Shown here: positions 20,916-56,274 of the stretch, one piece after another
Layout: each line of letters starts with the position of its first letter
How positions within the stretch are numbered: position 1 is the first letter of the stretch
Assembly (NCBI GenBank): GCA_964503265.1
Contig: CAZCYO010000001.1
Coordinates: 226,064-290,063, forward strand
DNA length: 64,000 nucleotides
Direction: 5' to 3'
DNA from: an uncultured Gammaproteobacteria bacterium
Lineage (GTDB): Bacteria; Patescibacteriota; Microgenomatia; Levybacterales; UBA12049
Program-made: the position numbers and the translations under genes
Notes under the pieces: generated by a model
Told to the model about the DNA's origin: nothing
The model's database searches: none
Seen by the model: the letters and a program-made list of their open reading frames with translations, nothing else

Positions 20916-20957
20916 ATGTGTAGAATAAAGAATTATGAATTAAGAATCAAGTATGTG

Positions 20958-21029
20958 AGCCGAAGGTGGGATTCGGACCCACGACTTGCTCTTTACGAAA
21001 GAGCTACTCTACCCCTGAGTTACTCCGGC
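20958..21029 (-). tRNA. tRNA-Thr (anticodon CGT).
   Basis: Cloverleaf folded by eye: acceptor GCCGGAG/CTTCGGC, D-arm, anticodon stem GCTCT/AGAGC with loop TTCGTAA, T-arm GTGGG-TCCGAAT-CCCAC, discriminator U. Confidence 0.8.
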
Positions 21030-21300
21030 ACAGGTGTTATTTTAGGAGATTTTACACATGGAAGCAATACTCGAGAAAATAATCGTCTCATAGTTTGATT
21101 ATACAAAAATAATTTAGTATACTCTCGTAGTCTTTTAGGAAAGAATCATAATTGCATGATCTCTTTGCTATTAGTGCATTTTTTAGCACATTAATAGTTT
21201 TTGCGAACAAATTATCTACTTGGACGAGGTGATAGGTGAGTAATTCATTACTTTTCTTTCTTCTCGTCCAAGTTGGACGAACACAAAAAAGGAGGAGTCG

Positions 21301-21666
21301 ATGTCTACTATCTTTGCACAATCTGATCTCGATGCTGCAAAACGACGAGCGATAGATCGCTATTTTTTTACACAGCTGGAAAAACAGCTTGCTAGTGCGA
21401 CTACCATACCTCTGGAAATCCGCCTTAGCGGAGCTCGGGTTATCTTTACTGTTTTCGGGGGCAAAGCCCACCGTGAGCAGTACAAGAAGAATTGGGTACT
21501 ACCATTAGGCATTATCGAGCTATTGATTGCTGCGGAAGTGCCGCCGGCGATGCTTATTCACTTCCTGGAGGAGGATTTACTGCTGATTCCAGGTATTGGA
21601 GAGGAGGAGGAGGAACAGATTCTCATTGCTCGTGCCCCGTTTCTCCCGGTATTCACCGGAAGTTGA
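21301..21666 (+). CDS. Hypothetical small protein with a C-terminal helix-hairpin-helix motif (GC-rich islet 1, ORF 1).
   Basis: AAAAGGAGGAG Shine-Dalgarno 7 nt upstream of ATG. GC-rich codon usage. LLLIPGIGEEEEEQILIAR matches the HhH consensus L-P-G-I-G...I. Confidence 0.55.
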   Translation: MSTIFAQSDLDAAKRRAIDRYFFTQLEKQLASATTIPLEIRLSGARVIFTVFGGKAHREQYKKNWVLPLGIIELLIAAEVPPAMLIHFLEEDLLLIPGIGEEEEEQILIARAPFLPVFTGS

Positions 21667-21684
21667 AGGTTCAGGAGGTATACT

Positions 21685-21891
21685 ATGGTGGAAGACGTCC
21701 GATATGACTTGGCAGGTCTCGAAGAGATCTGTCATAGCATCTTCCGAGGTCACAATCAGGTTATTCTTCTGGCTGAAAACTATTCTGGTCGCGAGCTGGA
21801 AGCAGTTATGCGGCGACTCAAGGAGGCTACCGGGAAGAACTATACCTATGAATGGGAGCCCGGAAAGCGCATCGAAGTTCGGTGCACATAG
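21685..21891 (+). CDS. Hypothetical small protein (GC-rich islet 1, ORF 2).
   Basis: AGGAGG SD 8 nt upstream. 68 aa. GC-rich codons. Confidence 0.5.
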   Translation: MVEDVRYDLAGLEEICHSIFRGHNQVILLAENYSGRELEAVMRRLKEATGKNYTYEWEPGKRIEVRCT

Positions 21892-21922
21892 TACTTACAT
21901 GCCGAAAGGCAAGGAGGAGGTC

Positions 21923-22201
21923 ATGGAATTTGAACGTGCGTGTATCGCGTATGGCATGCATTTGATGACATTGTCTATGACTCTGTCACAAATGAAGGAC
22001 ATCACCGAAACACCAGCATTTGACGTATTTCTTCACGCATTGAAGGAGACGTCAACGTCTATGGCGTATGGGTCTCTCACAAAGGAGGAGGTGAGTGCTT
22101 TTAGCGCTTCTCTTGGTATTTTGCTCCAAGTTGGTGGGGCGCAGCTAGCTGAAATCAACTTCCAGAAGATGCTGAAGTCATTGGCCGCATTGCAACAATA
22201 G
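21923..22201 (+). CDS. Hypothetical small protein (GC-rich islet 1, ORF 3).
   Basis: AAGGAGGAGG SD directly upstream of ATG at 21923. The long 201-aa form in the ORF track spans the upstream gene and is unlikely. Confidence 0.5.
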   Translation: MEFERACIAYGMHLMTLSMTLSQMKDITETPAFDVFLHALKETSTSMAYGSLTKEEVSAFSASLGILLQVGGAQLAEINFQKMLKSLAALQQ

Positions 22202-22320
22202 AATAGCAAGAGAATGGCGTTTTTGTGAGAAGAATTATTCACAAATGTATAACGTAGTGTTCAACTGATTGCCATCGCGATTTGCGTGTATGGAGTACCA
22301 GTTGGCACAACACTATACAT

Positions 22321-22905: not shown

Positions 22906-25267
<2,362 letters not shown>

Positions 25268-28882: not shown

Positions 28883-28910
28883 TATTAGCTATACGCTATT
28901 AGCTATACGC
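28883..28910. repeat. Perfect 14-bp tandem duplication (TATTAGCTATACGC x2) upstream of atpB.
   Basis: Read directly from the sequence. Confidence 0.9.
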
Positions 28911-29023
28911 TAGATTCTATTTTACCTCGTGAGCCTATTTCGAGTCAAGGCGGAAATTGGATGGGCGCTGGCGCCCACCCGTGATAAGTGGTGCGCCAGC
29001 ATGTGTGCACTGGGAATTTGTTG

Positions 29024-29557
29024 TTAGTTGCAGTTTATCTTCAGCAGTGGTGACAGTGTGTGTTGACCTCCGAGAATGAACCCTTCGAGTATGTTCCCTT
29101 CGTGCTCGGCGAGAGTGCACGTCTGCGTGATGAGCGTGCGGGCATCATGGATATCGCTCAGAAGCACGTTTGCGGTAAATGTTTCTCCCCGCCTAAGCCC
29201 AAGGGCTCGTTTCCGGAATTCATCGCGACTGAGAGTAGAGTATTCCTCGACGGTCTCCTCCTTCGCACGTATGTTTTCCACGCTTGTCCAGTTGACATGG
29301 TGCAGAGCTTTGAAAACGCCGTTGAGCATGATCGAGAAGACGAGTGTGAACTGTTCAGGGGTACTGTCGGCGCAGAGTTCCAGAGTATCCATCAACTTGT
29401 GGATGAGGAAGTGGACCTGTTCGTAGATCTCCGCGTAGGTGAGATGAACGCCCGTGAGCGTTTGTGATGCTTCCATCAGTTTCTTGATGTGCATCTCGGT
29501 TAGCTTCGGGGTAGACATAATACCTTCTGCAGTGACAGTAACTTCGATCTCATCCAT
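29024..29557 (-). CDS. Hypothetical protein (GC-rich islet 2, ORF 2).
   Basis: AAAGGAG SD upstream of ATG. 177 aa. GC-rich codon usage (GAG, CTG, GTC) unlike neighbouring genes. Confidence 0.5.
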   Translation of the reverse strand: MDEIEVTVTAEGIMSTPKLTEMHIKKLMEASQTLTGVHLTYAEIYEQVHFLIHKLMDTLELCADSTPEQFTLVFSIMLNGVFKALHHVNWTSVENIRAKEETVEEYSTLSRDEFRKRALGLRRGETFTANVLLSDIHDARTLITQTCTLAEHEGNILEGFILGGQHTLSPLLKINCN

Positions 29558-29646
29558 GAACAGACTCCTTTCGTTGGGGAGATATCATGACAGAGAGGAA
29601 GGCGGTCCTCTCATTGAGTGCCGGTAACCTACCGGCAGGATGGACC

Positions 29647-30042
29647 TCAAGTTGCAGTCTCATTTTCCTCGCCACGAATGACGAGGTCAATGGGTTGATC
29701 ATTGAAAACGATGAGCGTAGGTATATCGCTCTTTTCGTCTTCAGAATCATCAGGGCTTGTTTCCAGAACGAGTCGTGGCTGAGTAGACAGGACGATGTCA
29801 GATTTCATGCAGACTTCTACGACCTGTCCTAGCTCATCACTGCTATATACAATGATGAAGACAAGAAGCGAAGAATTCTCAAGCTTAATCCAGCCGTGAT
29901 TATCTATTTGCTCGAGAAGTTCGTCGATCGATTCACTGGATGCACCAGGAATAATCGAGATATCGAGCACATAGATTAACGGTTTTAGCTCGAGAAAAAA
30001 ATCACTAGGTGCGTCAGGTATATTCAGCATCGGAACCTCCAC
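29647..30042 (-). CDS. Hypothetical protein (GC-rich islet 2, ORF 1).
   Basis: GGAGGTTCCG SD upstream of ATG. 131 aa, acidic. Confidence 0.5.
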   Translation of the reverse strand: MEVPMLNIPDAPSDFFLELKPLIYVLDISIIPGASSESIDELLEQIDNHGWIKLENSSLLVFIIVYSSDELGQVVEVCMKSDIVLSTQPRLVLETSPDDSEDEKSDIPTLIVFNDQPIDLVIRGEENETAT

Positions 30043-30273
30043 AGTACGCTAATTGTCTATGTACCTTCCGCCCAAGGCAAAGACACGAGATGGAGAAGTA
30101 CTTCTCGACCTGGTGACTGTGCCTTAGGCGTTATAACAACAAATTTTAATGTGCGAAAAAATGATGCTTTCTCAAGATACATACGCAAATACTATGCTCT
30201 TTTGAAAGCAGGGGGATTATACTAAAAATAGAGCACGAGAACAATTATAGGACTGTATACTATATATACTATA

Positions 30274-35818: not shown

Positions 35819-35894
35819 ATTTCATCCTTGTCATTGCGAGGACTGGAATGACGAATCAATCTTAAAAGATCGCCACGCTTTGCTCGCGATGACA

Positions 35895-48801: not shown

Positions 48802-48867
48802 GTATTGTCATTGCGAGATCTACGACTTCGTTATACTTTCTCTCAATGACATGTTGGTACAATAAGC

Positions 48868-50415: not shown

Positions 50416-52413
50416 TTATTTATTCTCTAGCTCCTTAATCTTATCCCTTATTTGTAATGCACTTTCGAAATCTAAATGCTCTGCGGCTAATTTCATTTCT
50501 TTTCGCAATCGACTAATAACATCTTTTCGCTCATCTGGAAGAAGTACCTCTTTTGTTCCGAGTTCTACCATAAAATCGATTGATCGCTGTTCACCTTTTT
50601 GTTCTTTTTCCTCGACGAGCCGTGCACGAATCGATTTTTCAATTCCAACCGGGGTAATGCCATGTTTCTTATTGTAGGCTGTCTGAACTTCTCGTCGGCG
50701 TTCGACTTCATCTATCGCGTATTTCATCGAGTCAGTGATTCGGTCTGCATACATGATGACCTGTGAGTCGACGTGCCTGGCTGCGCGTCCCATGGTTTGG
50801 ATAAGAGACGTACGAGAACGTAAAAATCCTTCTTTATCTGCATCGAGAATCACGACGAGGGATACTTCTGGAAGATCGAGTCCTTCACGAAGAAGATTGA
50901 TTCCGACTAATACATCATAATCACCCACGCGAAGCTTATCGAGGACATCTTGGCGTTCAAGTGTAATAATATCTGAGTGAAGATATGCGACTTTTACTTT
51001 TTTATCGTCGAGATAGCTGGTCAGTTCTTCAGCCATACGCTTGGTGAGAGTTGTAACGAGTACACGTTCTTTTTTAACTACTCGTTTTTCAATTTCGAGC
51101 AAGAGATCTGGAATTTGTCCTGCTGATGGTTTGATCGTAATGACTGGATCGACGAGTCCTGTTGGACGGATAAGCTGTTCGGCGACATTTTCTGGACCAC
51201 TCAGGGACACTTCAAATTCATTTGGGGTTGCTGATACGAATACTTTGCGGTTTACCTTTCTCATAAATTCATCAAAGCGAAGTGGGCGATTATCTAGTGC
51301 TGAGGGAAGTCTGAATCCATAATCGATGAGTGTCCGTTTTCGAGCTTGGTCTCCGTTATACATTCCTCTGATTTGAGGAAGTGTTATATGAGATTCGTCG
51401 ATGATAAGTAGCCAATCATTTTTTGCAGCTGCTTTAAAGTATTCAAGAAGTGTATATGGTGGATCGCCAGGCTTACGGTCTTCGAAGTAAAATGAATAAT
51501 TTTCAATTCCGTTTACATATCCAACTTCTTGCATCATTTCAAGGTCAAATTGTGTTCGTTGGGCAAGGCGCTGAGCTTCAAGAAGTTTGTTCTCGCTTCG
51601 AAGCTCTGCCACACGTTTGTCGAGATCAGCTTTAATTCGAGCGAACGCATCATTACGTGTCGAGGGGTCTGTCATGTAATGTTTCGCTGGGTAAATCACA
51701 GTTTTCGGAAGAGCTTTCGTGATTTCACCAGATACAGGATTAAATTCAGACATTTTGGTAATAAATCCTTCATTTGTTTCAATACGGATCCCTATATCCA
51801 TGTAGGCTGGGAAGAGGTCAATAACGCCTCCACGAATGCGAAATGATCCTCGTTTAAATTCATAGTCATTTCGTAGATACTGAAGATCAGTGAGGCGAAC
51901 GAGGATATCTCGCATCTCGACTTTAAGCCCTTCCATCAGTTCGAGGACGAACTTTCCATATTCAAGAGGTGAACCTAAGTTATAAATACATGACACTGAT
52001 GCGACGACGATAGCGTCTTTACGTGTTAAGAGGTTAGTAGTGGCCGAGAGACGAAGTTTGTCTATCTCATCGTTAATTTCAGCTTCTTTCTCTATATATG
52101 TATCGGTAGTAGGCATGTATGCTTCTGGCTGATAGTAATCATAGTAAGAAACGAAGTAAGAGACAGCATTTTCAGGGAAGAAATCTCTGAACTCCTGGTA
52201 GAGTTGCCCTGCAAGTGTTTTATTATGCGAGATGATAAGAGTAGGTTTTTGAATTTGCTGGATGACATTTGCCATGGTAAACGTTTTACCACTTCCTGTA
52301 ACACCGAGAAGCACTTGGTTTTGTTCATCTTTTTTAAGTCCTGAGACGAGTTTCGCAATAGCATCAGGCTGATCACCCATAGGTTTGAAATCTGATTTAA
52401 GTTTAAAATCCAT
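50416..52413 (-). CDS. uvrB: Excinuclease ABC subunit B.
   Basis: LLGVTGSGKTFT Walker A, helicase motifs, C-terminal UVR domain. 665 aa. Confidence 0.95.
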   Translation of the reverse strand: MDFKLKSDFKPMGDQPDAIAKLVSGLKKDEQNQVLLGVTGSGKTFTMANVIQQIQKPTLIISHNKTLAGQLYQEFRDFFPENAVSYFVSYYDYYQPEAYMPTTDTYIEKEAEINDEIDKLRLSATTNLLTRKDAIVVASVSCIYNLGSPLEYGKFVLELMEGLKVEMRDILVRLTDLQYLRNDYEFKRGSFRIRGGVIDLFPAYMDIGIRIETNEGFITKMSEFNPVSGEITKALPKTVIYPAKHYMTDPSTRNDAFARIKADLDKRVAELRSENKLLEAQRLAQRTQFDLEMMQEVGYVNGIENYSFYFEDRKPGDPPYTLLEYFKAAAKNDWLLIIDESHITLPQIRGMYNGDQARKRTLIDYGFRLPSALDNRPLRFDEFMRKVNRKVFVSATPNEFEVSLSGPENVAEQLIRPTGLVDPVITIKPSAGQIPDLLLEIEKRVVKKERVLVTTLTKRMAEELTSYLDDKKVKVAYLHSDIITLERQDVLDKLRVGDYDVLVGINLLREGLDLPEVSLVVILDADKEGFLRSRTSLIQTMGRAARHVDSQVIMYADRITDSMKYAIDEVERRREVQTAYNKKHGITPVGIEKSIRARLVEEKEQKGEQRSIDFMVELGTKEVLLPDERKDVISRLRKEMKLAAEHLDFESALQIRDKIKELENK

Positions 52414-52493: not shown

Positions 52494-52526
52494 TGTCTAA
52501 ATTATACGAAATTCGTATAATTTTCA
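52494..52526 (+). promoter_or_regulatory. lexA promoter (TTGTCT-17-TATAAT) overlapped by a perfect 9-1-9 palindrome TTATACGAA-a-TTCGTATAA (candidate SOS/LexA box).
   Basis: Palindrome at 52502..52520 spans the spacer and -10 hexamer. It lies between the divergent uvrB and lexA genes. Confidence 0.55.
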
Positions 52527-52563: not shown

Positions 52564-53193
52564 ATGCCAGGCGTATTATATAAAAAAGAACGAGAACTCC
52601 TAGAATTTCTCGCACAATTCCAAAAACAGTATGGGTACTCACCAACTCTCGTCGAAATGGCGAAAGGAACAGGACATAAGAGTGTCTCAACGATCCACAC
52701 GATTATCCGAAATTTAGTTGAAAAAGGATATATCCAGAAAGTAGATGGAAACGCACGTGTACTTCGCATCATCGAAGATAACATTTCACCTAATATGTAT
52801 AAAGTCTCGCCATCTATCGAACTTCCTCTTATGGGTTTTATCGCAGCAGGCAAGCCACTTGAACCACACACAGATCCAAATGCGACATTCCCAGTTTCAG
52901 CGAGTCTGATCTCAGGTGGAAAAACAGCATATGTGCTTCAGGTAAAGGGAACATCGATGATAGATGATGGTATTATGGATGGTGATTATGTCGTAATCGA
53001 AAAAGTATCAGAAGCACGTAATGGTGAGATCGTGGTCGCACTCGTTGATGATAACCTCGCGACATTAAAACGATTTTATATGGAAGATGGAAGAGTAGTA
53101 CTTAAGCCAGCTAATGCAACCATGGAACCGATCTATCCTAAAAGCATCCGCATCCAAGGAAGAGCAGTCTCTCTCGTTCGTAAATTCCTCTAA
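52564..53193 (+). CDS. lexA: LexA repressor (S24 peptidase).
   Basis: N-terminal wHTH. C-terminal S24 domain GTSMIDDGIMDGDYVV with the Ser...Lys catalytic pair in context. Confidence 0.9.
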   Translation: MPGVLYKKERELLEFLAQFQKQYGYSPTLVEMAKGTGHKSVSTIHTIIRNLVEKGYIQKVDGNARVLRIIEDNISPNMYKVSPSIELPLMGFIAAGKPLEPHTDPNATFPVSASLISGGKTAYVLQVKGTSMIDDGIMDGDYVVIEKVSEARNGEIVVALVDDNLATLKRFYMEDGRVVLKPANATMEPIYPKSIRIQGRAVSLVRKFL

Positions 53194-53459
53194 TTAGCTT
53201 ATTGTCATTGCGAGAAGCCAAGCGACGAAGCAATCTCTTCTCCTGTTATTCTGGAAAGCACCGACTTTTCCAGAATCCTATATCAAAATTAACCCCATAG
53301 TTCTATTTTTCCTTATCTTTTGTTATAATTCAGGCGTACATTTACATTGTGAGATATCACACATGGTCGGCTTTTTGTTCATTCACGAAGTGAATAAGAA
53401 GCTTGCCATGTGGCAGCCAAGTTGTACTACAATTTGCATTACTACGGTTGGAGAAAAAG

Positions 53460-53762
53460 ATGGAAAACATGTTCGGAGGAAAAGTTGTCTATCGACCGGA
53501 GTTCATGCCCGAAGATGGGAAGTACATGCTGATCCTCTTTACGGTAGAAGAAATCAATGTGCCTGCTCATGGTGAAACTGCCGAAAAGCAGTTGGTCGTA
53601 CCTACTCATCAGATTGAAGCCTATGTCGATCTCGAGAGCATTTCTCAACGTGTCGAAGGTCTGATGAAACGTGAGCCAGGTCGAACTGACTTCATTATCC
53701 TGCATGCCGACCAGCTCCAGGTCGTGACGAATTATACCCTCACGGGCTGTAGTAGGACATAA
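53460..53762 (+). CDS. Hypothetical small protein (GC-rich islet 3, ORF 1).
   Basis: GGAG 7 nt upstream of ATG. 100 aa. GC-rich codons. Confidence 0.45.
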   Translation: MENMFGGKVVYRPEFMPEDGKYMLILFTVEEINVPAHGETAEKQLVVPTHQIEAYVDLESISQRVEGLMKREPGRTDFIILHADQLQVVTNYTLTGCSRT

Positions 53763-53818
53763 TCACTGCATACAGTCAATTCTTGCACCATATAGGTGCT
53801 GAACTTAGGGGGGTCTCT

Positions 53819-54037
53819 ATGGACGAGAAGGATGTCCTGCGGATCAAGAATCGGCACTCTCGGCAGTTGAGGCAGAGGCCGAAAGTTAACGGTGTTGGCA
53901 CGTGTGTGATTAACGGAGTGCACTGTGTGCACGTCTGGCTGACAAGTGAAGCTGAACCGTCTGACAACCTGCCGGCGACCCTTGAGGGTGTTCCGGTGGT
54001 CTACGAAGTTCTCGGCGAGATCATTCCTCGGAACTAG
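53819..54037 (+). CDS. Hypothetical small protein (GC-rich islet 3, ORF 2).
   Basis: AGGGGGG upstream of ATG. 72 aa. GC-rich codons. Confidence 0.45.
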   Translation: MDEKDVLRIKNRHSRQLRQRPKVNGVGTCVINGVHCVHVWLTSEAEPSDNLPATLEGVPVVYEVLGEIIPRN

Positions 54038-54220
54038 AAGCTGTATGATTTTCTCATTCACCAATCACAGTAACTATACATAAGCACCAGAAGGGTGCGG
54101 AAGTAAAAGGAGGATTTGGCCTGTCACTCGCTGATAGGACGCAAAAACCCTTGGTCTTCCGACCACACCCCAAGGTGCTTTTTGCGTTTTATACAGCTGT
54201 TTTGTGCTAAAATACGCACA

Positions 54221-54943
54221 ATGGGAATTTTATTTGTGGTGGGGACACCGATTGGGAACTTACAAGACATTACGATTCGTGCGATTCATACACTTTTTCA
54301 TGTAGATACGATTGCATGTGAAGATACGAGACGTACTGGGAGTCTTCTGCAGTCCCTCATGCCTGTGTATGAAACGCTCATGCATGTGGAAGATAGAGCA
54401 CTTAAACGTCCGAAACTCCTTTCATATTTCGAACAGAACGAGCTTCGGCGTATTCCAGAGATCCTATCCCTACTTCATAATGATGAACATGTCGCACTCG
54501 TATCAGATGCAGGCATGCCAGCGATTTCAGACCCGGGATATAAACTCATTCGCGAATGTATTAGAGCCGGGGTAAAGATAGAGGTAATTCCTGGGCCTTC
54601 AAGTACGCTTATGGCCTTGGTTGGATCAGGGATGCCGACTGATAAATGGACATTTGTCGGTTATCCTCCACATAAATCAGGACATCGAAAATCACTGTTT
54701 GAAAGTGTTAAAAAAGCAAATGAATTTATTAAATCCACGATTATAATGTTTGAAGCGCCTCATAAAATTATTAAAACACTTGAAGAGATGCAGATGGTAT
54801 TTGGAGATATCGAAGTAGTACTTGCGAGGGAGCTGACGAAAATCCATGAAGAATCACGACATTTCAGAATCTCAGAAGCTCTCATTCATTTCTCCAAAAC
54901 CAACCCTAAAGGAGAATACGTGGTAGTATTTTCATTGAGTTAA
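54221..54943 (+). CDS. rsmI: 16S rRNA 2'-O-ribose C1402 methyltransferase RsmI (tetrapyrrole methylase fold).
   Basis: ILFVVGTPIGNLQDIT..A...L...D.IACEDTRRT. Confidence 0.85.
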   Translation: MGILFVVGTPIGNLQDITIRAIHTLFHVDTIACEDTRRTGSLLQSLMPVYETLMHVEDRALKRPKLLSYFEQNELRRIPEILSLLHNDEHVALVSDAGMPAISDPGYKLIRECIRAGVKIEVIPGPSSTLMALVGSGMPTDKWTFVGYPPHKSGHRKSLFESVKKANEFIKSTIIMFEAPHKIIKTLEEMQMVFGDIEVVLARELTKIHEESRHFRISEALIHFSKTNPKGEYVVVFSLS

Positions 54944-56274
54944 ATCAAGAAAAGACCCAATACACTTGTGACGATAATACACATGACACTCAGTCCAAAT
55001 TTTACTGTAAATTCTTTGGTTCCTAGAAAGTAACTATATGCTGTTTTACCGATTAGATTTACTGCATTAGCTAGAATAAAGGCGATAGCGGCTAGTTGGT
55101 ATGAAACGGTAGTTCCTGAAAGTTGGGCGGTGTTAATCATGACTGCATCTAGCCCTGCGAGCGCTCCAATTCCAGTGGTTACTAAAAAACCACTGCTGCC
55201 AAAATACTTCAATGCTACTTTCGAAAGAATGCTTATCACAAGAAATATTCCTGCAAACTTTATTGCAGGTGACAAGGCAAAAATCTCAGTCTCTTTTTCA
55301 TGTGACTTGTCTGGCTTGAGTTTCTTTTTACTTGATTGCATGGTGAAAAATATTGTGACGGCCAGACTGCTCACGATCATTAATCCAAGAATCGGGAGGA
55401 GTCTGATTACAAAAGTGATATTAAGCGGGGAAAGAAGAATCGCAATCTGAAAAAAGCTGACCAAATTCGCGATCAGTGCAGCTGAAAGGAGATGATTTAC
55501 ATCTTTTGACGTCTTACTTTGCAGTGCAAGAGACTGAGTGGTCGCAGTACTTGAGATAAAGCCTCCAGCGATACTTGCTAGTATCCATCCTTTTTGGCGT
55601 CCAAGTGTTCGCTCGAGAATGTATCCGATAAGGTCGACTCCGGTAATGAGTGCGACTATCAGCCACAATTTAAATGGGTTAACTATCTCAAGCTGAAAAA
55701 GACCGTTTACTGGCACCTGTGCGTTATTAAAGAAATTGGTTAGTCCGGGGATATCCTTTAGTGCATACGATGTATTTGGTAGAAAGGGAAGGATAACCAG
55801 GGCGATGATGGCATAACTAATAAAAGCGTTAAGTTCTGCGCGCTTTATACCTCCGATCACCTGTTTAATAGCTCTTTTTTGAGAGAGAGTGAGTGCCAGA
55901 ACTGCAGTCATAGCTATTGTTACTTGTACTGGAATAATCGTGGTTGCGATCAGTATGCCGATGATAAAACAGAAAAGCATGGCTAATTCAGTAGTAATTC
56001 CTGTATCTTTTGTTTGGTTTGTATCAAGGACATAAAACACGATAAGAAGAACGAGAAACGCTGCGCTAATGAGGATAGAGAATCCAATAAAATTGGTATA
56101 GAGTATCCCTGCAACTGCTCCTAACGTCGCGATAAGCGCGAAGCTGCGCAATCCCAGAACCGAAACAATCTTACCATTAATGATGTTTTTTTCATTAATT
56201 TCTCGTTCTATCCCGATCGCTGCACCAAGAATAAATGAAATAAGTAGAGTAAACGAAATAGTTATGCTATCCAT
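54940..56274 (-). CDS. MgtC/SapB-family membrane protein with extended C-terminal multi-TM domain (DUF4010-like).
   Basis: N-terminal GAAIGIEREINEK matches the MgtC G-x-E-R-E motif. About 12 TM helices overall. Confidence 0.6.
   Translation of the reverse strand: MDSITISFTLLISFILGAAIGIEREINEKNIINGKIVSVLGLRSFALIATLGAVAGILYTNFIGFSILISAAFLVLLIVFYVLDTNQTKDTGITTELAMLFCFIIGILIATTIIPVQVTIAMTAVLALTLSQKRAIKQVIGGIKRAELNAFISYAIIALVILPFLPNTSYALKDIPGLTNFFNNAQVPVNGLFQLEIVNPFKLWLIVALITGVDLIGYILERTLGRQKGWILASIAGGFISSTATTQSLALQSKTSKDVNHLLSAALIANLVSFFQIAILLSPLNITFVIRLLPILGLMIVSSLAVTIFFTMQSSKKKLKPDKSHEKETEIFALSPAIKFAGIFLVISILSKVALKYFGSSGFLVTTGIGALAGLDAVMINTAQLSGTTVSYQLAAIAFILANAVNLIGKTAYSYFLGTKEFTVKFGLSVMCIIVTSVLGLFLI

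Follow-up and report, generated by a model that had tools for sequence, protein, structure and literature searches.

A GC-rich two-gene islet between lexA and rsmI of a Levybacteria genome encodes a small protein folded like the NAL1 pre-protease domain

In the rice serine protease NARROW LEAF 1 (NAL1), an 'ATP-binding domain' (residues 89-172) precedes the catalytic domain, binds ATP-Mg and mediates trimer contacts with the protease domain (PMC12012508). The pro-region of alpha-lytic protease (PDB 2pro) and prodomain-like proteins (PDB 4hlb) have a related fold and, like the small-protein family described below, are associated with trypsin-fold proteases; regarding bacterial homologues of NAL1, nothing relevant was found in the literature. 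At the genomic level, the closest counterparts of the locus studied here are the ORFan islets of hypervariable intergenic slots, together with the DedA/VTT gene which, in Levybacteria and Gottesmanbacteria, is the usual occupant of the slot between lexA and rsmI. Here, we analyze an islet located in this very slot, within a window of 64 kb (the whole stretch of DNA considered) from a genome of Ca. Levyibacteriota, a candidate phylum of the Patescibacteria. It resembles ORFan islets in its deviant composition, its absence from relatives, its conserved core neighbours and the varying content of the slot, but differs from them in having no integrase, no tRNA attachment site and no flanking direct repeat and in spanning only ~0.8 kb, while its genes, which lie at the same position as the DedA/VTT gene, are unrelated to it in sequence. 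The genes of the locus and the native promoter that follows the islet are listed below.

52564-53193, plus strand: lexA (TIGR00498, 167.7 bits, cutoff 111)
53460-53762, plus strand: ORF1, 100 aa, with the Shine-Dalgarno site GGAG at 53450-53453, 6 nt before the ATG
53819-54037, plus strand: ORF2, 72 aa, with the Shine-Dalgarno site AGGGGGG at 53807-53813, 5 nt before the ATG
54205-54213, plus strand: native rsmI promoter TGcTAAAAT, 7 nt 5' of the ATG at 54221
54221-54943, plus strand: rsmI (TIGR00096, 218.9 bits, cutoff 168)

The order uvrB(-), lexA(+), rsmI(+) is kept in ~160 related loci (80 from genomes and 80 from metagenomes), in which the gap between lexA and rsmI contains nothing (~23 loci), a DedA-family membrane gene or other genes. 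Most of the non-empty gaps are occupied by DedA/VTT: 54 gap ORFs, spread over ~52 of the 80 genome loci, fall into the DedA cluster, and in the metagenome loci 36 gaps match DedA-type gaps in size, the size alone being compared, with other genes filling the remaining ones. ORF1, ORF2 and the DNA of the islet core were found in none of these ~160 loci (80 genome and 80 metagenome), and a DedA pseudogene was rejected as the content of the gap, no DedA remnant being present in the islet or in the 64-kb window. A sequence-only reading of this DNA, which had described the islet as two ORFan genes of foreign composition preceded by operator-like palindromes, had proposed to compare this gap across the lineage and had named a conserved cassette of normal composition as the outcome that would speak against it; the cassette proved to be neither conserved nor normal in GC3. 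On the right-hand side, the rsmI promoter marks the limit of the insert, relatives with an empty gap having the same TATAAT-N7-ATGGGAA arrangement before rsmI, and its position 7 nt from the ATG implies a leaderless rsmI mRNA. The foreign core extends roughly from 53400 to 54195 (~0.8 kb), the limits and the date of the insertion being approximate, since the nearest relative shares only 81% identity in LexA.

Composition sets the two ORFs apart from their surroundings, as the sequence-only reading had claimed. Relative to the long ORFs found in the window (n = 44; average GC 0.381 ± 0.043, GC3 0.296 ± 0.078), ORF1 has a GC of 0.48 and a GC3 of 0.52 (z-score +2.9) and ORF2 a GC of 0.56 and a GC3 of 0.67 (z-score +4.7). 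Among ~125 loci with a measurable gap, only this one shows a clear excess of GC in the gap over the flank (0.46 vs 0.39), the others being equal to or below their flank or above it by at most 0.02-0.03. Moreover, strong Shine-Dalgarno sites precede both ORF1 and ORF2, as had been noted of their purine-rich ribosome-binding sites, while such sites precede only 5 of the 38 long ORFs that are native; the genes of the host appear to be mostly leaderless, a -10 box directly adjoining the ATG in many of them, so that donor-type signals stand out in this host of the candidate phyla radiation (CPR). The donor was probably a higher-GC bacterium using Shine-Dalgarno sites, and the contigs carrying homologues of ORF2 have a GC content of 67-73%. 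Both features by which a horizontally acquired islet is recognized, an unusual composition and a lack of counterparts in relatives with the same flanking genes, are present. Regarding the hallmarks of mobility, neither an integrase or transposase gene nor a tRNA junction is found at the islet, the nearest tRNA being 7 kb away, and no integron attC-like core (GTTRRRY/RYYYAAC) was seen by eye in the islet. TTCATTCAC-type 16-mers (13 of 16 positions matching), considered as flanking direct repeats that could represent attachment sites or target duplications, were discarded as being at chance level. The idea that the window's three GC islets share an origin was likewise rejected, no DNA or protein similarity being found between them.

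ORF2, which is unannotated in public records and skipped by gene callers, is a coding sequence and a member of a widespread family of small proteins, as judged from sequence conservation. A phmmer search of 1.8e9 representative proteins returned homologues with E-values of 8e-6 to 8e-4, sharing 34-40% identity over the whole length, with V23, G25, L41, P52, G57, P59 and G66 invariant; ORF2 is itself full length and keeps all the residues invariant in the family. The family profile retrieves 221 members, proteins of ~70-90 aa with the conserved motif VxGVG ... LP..leGvPV ... G, which reach E-values down to 1e-11 in pairwise tblastn and for which Pfam and NCBIfam hold no model. Of the two genes described as ORFans by the sequence-only reading, only ORF1 retains this status, all homology searches with it being negative, ORF2 belonging to this family of ~220 proteins. 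The homology and structure searches called for by that reading gave ORF2 not only a family but also a fold, and ORF1 no homologue. ORF2 folds as a helix followed by a three-stranded sheet, as in the pre-protease domain of NAL1, and is thus a stand-alone small alpha/beta protein of the NAL1 pre-protease-domain or alpha-lytic-pro-region type. The likeness to the rice domain was compared at the level of the fold only, and no similarity in sequence to PDB chains was found; with the alpha-lytic pro-region, sequence identity is only 5%, and no match to Pfam Pro_Al_protease was obtained at E-values up to 1. The arrangement also differs, since the pre-catalytic domain of rice NAL1 is part of the protease and the alpha-lytic prodomain is covalently N-terminal to it, whereas the ORF2 family is encoded by a separate gene, downstream of the protease elsewhere, and ORF2 itself is a free-standing protein with no protease nearby.

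The genomic contexts of the family connect it to proteases of the NAL1 type. In seven of eight contexts of homologues, the small gene lies directly 3' of a gene for a protein of 325-373 aa; all four of the upstream proteins tested match Nal1_C (best E-value 1.3e-10), and in one family member (P0013) the small protein is fused N-terminally to a Nal1_C/trypsin domain. Since in other bacteria the small gene accompanies a NAL1-like protease and lies directly downstream of it, ORF2 is most likely a protease-binding protein, which would be an assembly factor, a chaperone or an inhibitor for a protease of the trypsin fold; by analogy with the alpha-lytic pro-region, a role as a chaperone or inhibitor is plausible. 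When the ORF2 family was compared by hhalign with the N-terminal part of the bacterial proteases encoded next to it, the probability was 0.25, which is not significant. At the present locus, ORF2 is not located 3' of a NAL1_C-type protease, its upstream gene being the unrelated ORF1, and no protease partner is encoded in any of the six frames of the islet or in the 64-kb window, which leaves its proposed action without a visible target here. ORF2 would thus be orphaned from its protease and paired with ORF1.

ORF1 is probably a protein without relatives. No matches were obtained in Pfam, PHROGs, PADLOC and NCBIfam, a word-indexed search of 5.8e9 proteins returned ORF1 itself alone, no homologue was found in scans of viral and metagenome contigs, in tblastn searches of phages and plasmids or among PDB sequences, and hhalign detected no relationship with the ORF2 family. 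That ORF1 might derive from the NAL1-like protease that is missing here was examined and rejected, phmmer at maximum sensitivity, tblastn and a six-frame hmmsearch with protease profiles all being negative. Only three features support it as a coding sequence, namely a length reached in no more than 1.5% of simulations (p ~0.015), the Shine-Dalgarno site and the GC content by codon position; the sole variant known differs by one nonsynonymous change.

The features named by the sequence-only reading were all found where it had placed them. The elements located between lexA and ORF1 are the following.

53202-53239, plus strand: short intergenic repeat GTCATTGCGAG...GAAGCAATC, directly 3' of the lexA stop, with GTCATTGCGAG at 53204
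53248-53276, plus strand: perfect hairpin ATTCTGGAAA / 9-nt loop / TTTCCAGAAT, 10 perfect pairs
53321-53329, plus strand: predicted extended -10 promoter TGtTATAAT, read from the sequence, in an AT-rich stretch (33% GC)
53348-53363, no strand assigned: near-palindrome TGTGAGATATCACACA = TGTGAGAT/ATCACACA (7 of 8 positions), ~+11 to +26 relative to the predicted start
53360-53412, plus strand: 23-bp RNA hairpin with four G·U pairs, in the ~120-nt 5' leader of ORF1

The repeat is a host-type sequence that lies outside the foreign core. Its GTCATTGCGAG motif (at most one mismatch) has 7 matches in the window vs 0.7 expected, a number reached in none of 100 shuffles, three more full copies of the repeat are located at 24637, 35830-35893 and 48807-48850, and it is the only DNA of the islet in common with other Patescibacteria loci (L078, at 97%, L134 and L155), in one of which, L134, it likewise follows lexA; nothing relevant to it was found in the literature. 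The next hairpin, which had been described with a 9-bp stem and as a possible lexA terminator, folds with -10.9 kcal/mol (z -3.6), equally well on both strands; it has no U-tract and is not called by the terminator scan, and it is possibly the 3' end or terminator of lexA. Of the two palindromes put forward as operators, TGTGAGATATCACACA has a position relative to the predicted start that would plausibly suit such a role; it has no second copy in the window and its statistics are at chance level (by our own estimate, a 16-mer palindrome with 7 of 8 positions is expected ~0.1-0.5 times in 270 nt). Single palindromes are individually not significant in this region, and its direct repeats are also at chance level. 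As for ATTCAC-gaa-GTGAAT (53381-53395), it is not a stand-alone operator but the loop-proximal end of the 23-bp hairpin at 53360-53412, whose plus strand folds with -30.7 kcal/mol (z -6.9) and whose minus strand folds with -18.1 kcal/mol (z -3.5), this asymmetry and the G·U pairs arguing for an element that acts as RNA and not for a site bound as DNA. An Rfam covariance-model search (E-values up to 10) returned a single match, to a plant miRNA, which is spurious (26 bits vs a gathering score of 102). Control of the cassette by LexA was also considered and rejected: a candidate LexA box, ATACGA-N3-4-TCGTAT, itself inferred, is conserved upstream of lexA in relatives and present here at ~52503-52519, and it is absent from 53194-53460, the cassette leader included; TACGAA-N-TTCGTA was discarded as a LexA box, being too strict.

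Further elements lie between the two genes and downstream of ORF2.

53785-53799, plus strand: hairpin/palindrome GCACC-ATATA-GGTGC, between ORF1 and ORF2
54084-54098, plus strand: second hairpin GCACC-AGAAG-GGTGC, 47 nt past the ORF2 stop
54139-54192, plus strand: inverted repeat forming a terminator-like long stem, ACGCAAAAACCCTTGG ... CCAAGGTGCTTTTTGCGT, followed by TTTAT

GCACC-N5-GGTGC occurs exactly twice in the 64 kb, both copies being perfect, located on either side of ORF2 and contained in a 19-nt direct repeat of 79% identity. The long stem belongs to a structured 3' trailer that is rich in GC (54080-54195; -44.1 kcal/mol, z -4.1). From 5' to 3', the cassette would thus consist of an extended -10 promoter, the ~120-nt leader with its 23-bp RNA hairpin, a Shine-Dalgarno site and ORF1, a short GCACC/GGTGC hairpin, a Shine-Dalgarno site and ORF2, the second GCACC/GGTGC hairpin and a terminator-like structure. 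The promoter and the terminator are consensus-level predictions listed by neither of the scans, the promoter being omitted because its -35 is weak.

We consider, with moderate confidence, that the best explanation of the locus is a recent horizontal transfer into a lineage-variable slot of a self-contained bicistronic cassette, from a higher-GC donor, with a protease-binding ORF2 orphaned from its protease and an ORF1 without relatives. The most serious alternative, which we nevertheless find unlikely, is that the islet is what remains of a decaying, transferred protease-accessory operon, functionless here, in which only ORF2 survives and ORF1 is a chance ORF within GC-rich foreign DNA. Such decay would fit the missing canonical protease partner, the lack of relatives of ORF1, the omission of ORF2 by gene callers and the presence of antisense ORFs of 87 and 110 aa, which indicates that open frames come easily in the islet; as the host seldom uses Shine-Dalgarno sites, donor-type signals may moreover work poorly. 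This reading is countered by the integrity of ORF2, full length with every family-invariant residue, by the lack of a protease remnant in any frame, by the well-placed Shine-Dalgarno site and ATG of ORF1, whose length is so rarely reached in simulations, and by the intact promoter-like and terminator-like ends of the cassette. Reduced CPR genomes, in addition, rarely keep ~0.8 kb of junk. That the segment is a chimera of assembly or binning, with foreign reads spliced into a Levybacteria contig, is scarcely credible: the change in composition is abrupt, the source is a MAG and one supporting contig has a coverage of only 2.2x, but the junction of lexA with the islet is reproduced in three assemblies and the right junction in two of them, all with native flanks. 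Besides the NCBI MAG contig (360,915 bp), these are Logan SRR12487046, identical to the locus over 5149 bp, and ENA ERZ4216102, in which 2038 bp contain 3 differences; the insert is also adjoined by elements of native type, the repeat on one side and the rsmI promoter on the other.

Two further readings concern the nature of the cassette. Two small adjacent genes with their own predicted promoter in a horizontally acquired islet recall an autoregulated addiction or defence module of the toxin-antitoxin type, for which TGTGAGATATCACACA, just 3' of the predicted start, and the two perfect 15-bp GCACC-N5-GGTGC palindromes, unique in the window and bracketing ORF2, would serve as operators for its own product; one homologue of ORF2 (L082) is also located among phage-like genes (N6/N4 methylase, HTH_17). 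We regard this as improbable, PADLOC, Pfam, NCBIfam and PHROGs giving no toxin, antitoxin or defence matches, neither product having a recognizable DNA-binding fold, the two ORFs being spaced by 56 nt with no overlap, and phage and plasmid collections yielding no matches, while the ORF2 family is overwhelmingly linked to proteases. GC-rich islands in AT-rich genomes often correspond to structured non-coding RNA, and the rise in GC seen here, with the strongly structured leader (z -6.9) and trailer (z -4.1), would fit a segment of this kind rather than protein genes. The full-length protein homologues of ORF2 largely refute this reading for that gene; no excess folding is found over ORF1 or ORF2 (z-scores of -1.1 and 0.0) and no Rfam family apart from the spurious match, making a purely RNA-coding segment highly improbable.

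Regarding the transferred cassette that we favour, the uptake of Shine-Dalgarno-led genes by a mostly leaderless CPR genome raises the question of their translatability there. A far-reaching and quite speculative proposal, to which we give little credence, is that the three GC-rich ORFan-bearing islets of the window are recent transfers from a high-GC organism (e.g., an actinomycete), possibly the physical host of the Levybacterium, ORF1 and ORF2 forming a new module that would target a NAL1-like protease of the host or partner. If true, the islets would be a genomic clue to the host of an episymbiont and would reveal a CPR bacterium borrowing a protease regulator from its host; on its own, the locus is a routine strain-specific islet of horizontal transfer with one modestly interesting passenger. 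The gap between lexA and rsmI, variable between strongly conserved neighbours, could nonetheless be used as a marker to follow gene flux in Microgenomates, and the definition of the ORF2 family could help to explain the assembly or control of bacterial NAL1-type proteases.

The lexA-rsmI interval (53194-54220) carries two plus-strand reading frames, ORF1 (100 aa) and ORF2 (72 aa), for which the best-supported reading is a small bicistronic cassette, recently acquired by horizontal transfer at a position whose content changes from one lineage member to another. Strain-specific islets of this kind, carrying ORFans, are commonplace in intergenic slots of variable content. The source genome belongs to Candidatus Levyibacteriota (Patescibacteria/CPR), and LexA-based locus searches returned only Levybacteria and Gottesmanbacteria MAGs, with best LexA identities of 79-81%. 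The genes of the locus are:

50416-52413, minus strand, uvrB
52564-53193, plus strand, lexA (passes the NCBIfam equivalog cutoff)
53460-53762, plus strand, ORF1
53819-54037, plus strand, ORF2
54221-54943, plus strand, rsmI (passes the NCBIfam equivalog cutoff)
54940-56274, minus strand, MgtC/DUF4010 gene

The order uvrB-lexA-rsmI is nearly universal in the 160 loci compared, of which 80 come from species-representative genomes and 80 from metagenomes. The gap measures only 3-130 nt in ~23 of these 160 loci; most others span ~600-850 nt and hold one gene of ~205-240 aa, most often a minus-strand one, and the remaining gaps are larger, with extra unrelated genes. The ~205-240 aa genes form a single cluster of DedA/VTT-domain proteins, counted in the genome loci only (54 gap ORFs in ~52 of 80); 36 metagenome gaps match the DedA-gap size, and the window contains no DedA remnant. 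This comparison, proposed in the sequence-only reading, shows that the cassette is not conserved in the lineage, tblastn at a cutoff of E 1e-3 having detected neither ORF1 nor ORF2 at any of the 160 loci. Only at the window locus is the gap clearly GC-richer than its flanks (0.46 vs 0.39), gap GC elsewhere being equal to or below the flank, or above it by at most 0.02-0.03. Empty-gap relatives show TATAAT-N7-ATGGGAA at the start of rsmI, an arrangement that implies a leaderless rsmI mRNA; since it is intact in the window (TGcTAAAAT at 54205-54213, ATG at 54221), the insert ends before ~54200. In L090, the retrieved locus with the closest LexA (81% identity), another unrelated plus-strand ORF (1233-1517) lies right after lexA, underlining the turnover of this slot. 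An assembly chimera is among the weaker explanations of the islet: three assemblies built with different software reproduce the left junction, and two of the three also the right one (a 2038-bp ENA contig stops ~170 nt short), with identical or nearly identical sequence, which argues against a chimera.

The foreign composition claimed for the interval proved quantitatively right. With reference to the window's 44 long ORFs (mean GC 0.381 ± 0.043, GC3 0.296 ± 0.078), GC3 is far higher in ORF1 (0.52, z +2.9) and ORF2 (0.67, z +4.7), and the GC profile in 100-nt windows climbs from 0.33 (53250-53350) to 0.54-0.58 (53650-54000) before returning to 0.39 at 54200. Comparable GC3 occurs elsewhere in the window only in two other GC-rich islets of the same reading (~21.3-22.2 kb and 28.9-30.0 kb). 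These lie at 21300-22240 and 28900-30050, either side of the ATP-synthase operon, one of them adjoining a tRNA-Thr (20957-21029). Their ORFs, with GC3 of 0.44 to 0.63 vs 0.30 for native genes, gave no Pfam match and no similarity between the two islets or to the lexA-rsmI islet:

21301-21666, plus strand, ORF
21596/21704-22201, plus strand, ORF
29024-29557, minus strand, ORF
29647-30042, minus strand, ORF

In a crude survey, an SD-like tetramer was found upstream of only 5 of 38 native long ORFs, and many had a -10-like or TATAAT-like box 6-8 nt before the ATG (54205-54223 for rsmI, upstream of 52413 for uvrB, and at 2820, 12991, 48904 and 56274), a pattern that suggests, and is consistent with, widespread leaderless mRNAs and leaderless translation. 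Their strong SD sites and long leader set ORF1 and ORF2 apart from most native genes, which again points to a foreign origin.

All the sequence elements listed earlier are present, at most 1-2 bases from the positions given. The 38-nt GTCATTGCGAG...GAAGCAATC repeat directly after lexA (53202-53239) is the only islet DNA recurring elsewhere in the 160 loci, and is one of a set of related short palindromic intergenic repeats, of the form GTCATTGCGAG...CTCGCAATGAC or GTCATTGCGAG...GAAGCAATC, with three other, full copies in the window (24637-24675 on the minus strand, 35830-35893 and 48807-48850), where the GTCATTGCGAG motif is over-represented (7 matches with at most 1 mismatch vs 0.7 expected). 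Common to other Patescibacteria (loci L078, L134 and L155, in L134 also directly after lexA), this repeat is host-type and lies outside the foreign core. The hairpin at 53248-53276, suggested as a lexA terminator, does exist, with 10 bp and no U-tract, and may mark the lexA 3' end. Judged by sequence, the best candidate for the cassette promoter is an extended -10, TGtTATAAT, at 53321-53329. The near-palindrome at 53348-53363, ~+11 to +26 from the predicted start, does not exceed chance expectation and is the only copy in the window. As for ATTCAC-gaa-GTGAAT, taken for an operator, it is the tip of a strand-asymmetric 23-bp hairpin (53360-53412), whose plus-strand RNA folds at -30.7 kcal/mol (z -6.9) vs -18.1 kcal/mol for the complement, because of four G·U pairs; rather than an operator, we take it for a predicted RNA structure of the leader that would influence stability or processing. 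A palindrome conserved across Levybacteria over the lexA promoter, ATACGA-N3-4-TCGTAT, overlaps the -10 in the divergent uvrB/lexA region (52503-52519 in the window; upstream of lexA in L004, L014, L020, L028 and other relatives) and is a likely candidate for a lineage-specific LexA box; the cassette leader lacks it, and hence nothing suggests SOS control of the cassette.

Around ORF2, GCACC-N5-GGTGC occurs in exactly two copies in the 64 kb, both perfect and within a 19-nt repeat, one before the gene (53785-53799) and one after (54084-54098); the first (TGCACCATATAGGTGCT) presumably resembles an NtrC-type site. Strong folding is also predicted for the 3' trailer (54080-54195; z -4.1), where a final long stem with TTTAT behind it resembles a terminator that could serve the cassette. 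The trailer also contains a perfect AAAGGAGGA (54106-54118), only 2 nt before the TTG opening the long rsmI reading frame and thus too close for this TTG to be a start; this element may have been left over from the donor or may contribute to the trailer fold.

Both proteins had been called ORFans, which does not hold for ORF2. Family libraries gave no match to it and a word-indexed search no candidate; exhaustive phmmer returned 15 matches (E 8e-6 to 8e-4), of which some are free-standing proteins of 68-96 aa, others repeat an ORF2-like unit in tandem, and one has it fused N-terminally to a Nal1_C/trypsin domain. The free-standing homologues are 34-40% identical to ORF2 along its entire length and share invariant G and P residues, and a profile search extended the family to 221 members, all labelled 'hypothetical' and none with a Pfam domain. 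An AlphaFold model on the family alignment (pLDDT 92) consists of a helix then a three-stranded sheet; its top Foldseek matches are all chains of the rice serine protease NAL1, including an 88-458 construct, which places the predicted fold in the domain of residues 89-172. This "ATP-binding domain" touches the protease domain in the NAL1 trimer (PMC12012508). Gene neighbourhoods agree with this result. In seven of eight homologue contexts the small gene lies directly 3' of, or overlaps by 1-4 nt, a gene of 325-373 aa, and the four upstream proteins translated are mutually 45-57% identical, carry an H/D/GDSGS signature and all match Pfam Nal1_C. A conserved module of a NAL1_C-like serine protease (325-373 aa) followed by a 72-83 aa ORF2-family protein is seen in high-GC bacteria (L084-L087, 1851-3225; L088/L089; L170; L171; L083), with an ankyrin-repeat protein and a second trypsin-like protease following in L084. 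Contigs with homologues have 67-73% GC, which fits the direction of the ORF2 anomaly, and the donor would be a high-GC organism. Homologues, fold and neighbourhoods establish ORF2 as a genuine protein-coding gene, called in no public source with either possible start.

ORF1 remains an ORFan by every search route used; searches also rejected it as a remnant of a missing protease. It is probably coding: a GGAG precedes its ATG at a suitable distance, ORFs of such length arose in 1.5% of Markov simulations of its region, RNA folding is not in excess, GC1 (0.60) exceeds GC2 (0.33) as in native genes, and two pipelines call it. Its single-sequence structure model is weak (pLDDT 55), with no significant fold match. 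The sole allelic variant of ORF1, one nonsynonymous change, is uninformative on selection.

The main rival reading is that the cassette survives, without function, from a protease-accessory operon. Weaker are a structured RNA, for which the folded leader and trailer speak and against which stand the lack of excess RNA folding in the ORF1 region and the protein-coding nature of ORF2, and a TA/defence-like module, the one homologue context of eight that departs from the protease-gene arrangement lying among phage-like genes. The preferred reading of a recently acquired bicistronic cassette builds on demonstrated points (composition, absence from relatives, and the family, fold and protease linkage of ORF2), and on inferred ones (promoter, terminator, coding status of ORF1 and a high-GC donor); under it, ORF2 would be a chaperone, an inhibitor or an assembly factor of a trypsin-fold protease. 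The interest of the locus hence lies in an unannotated gene and its widespread, undescribed protease-partnered family, and in SD-led foreign genes within a largely leaderless CPR genome.
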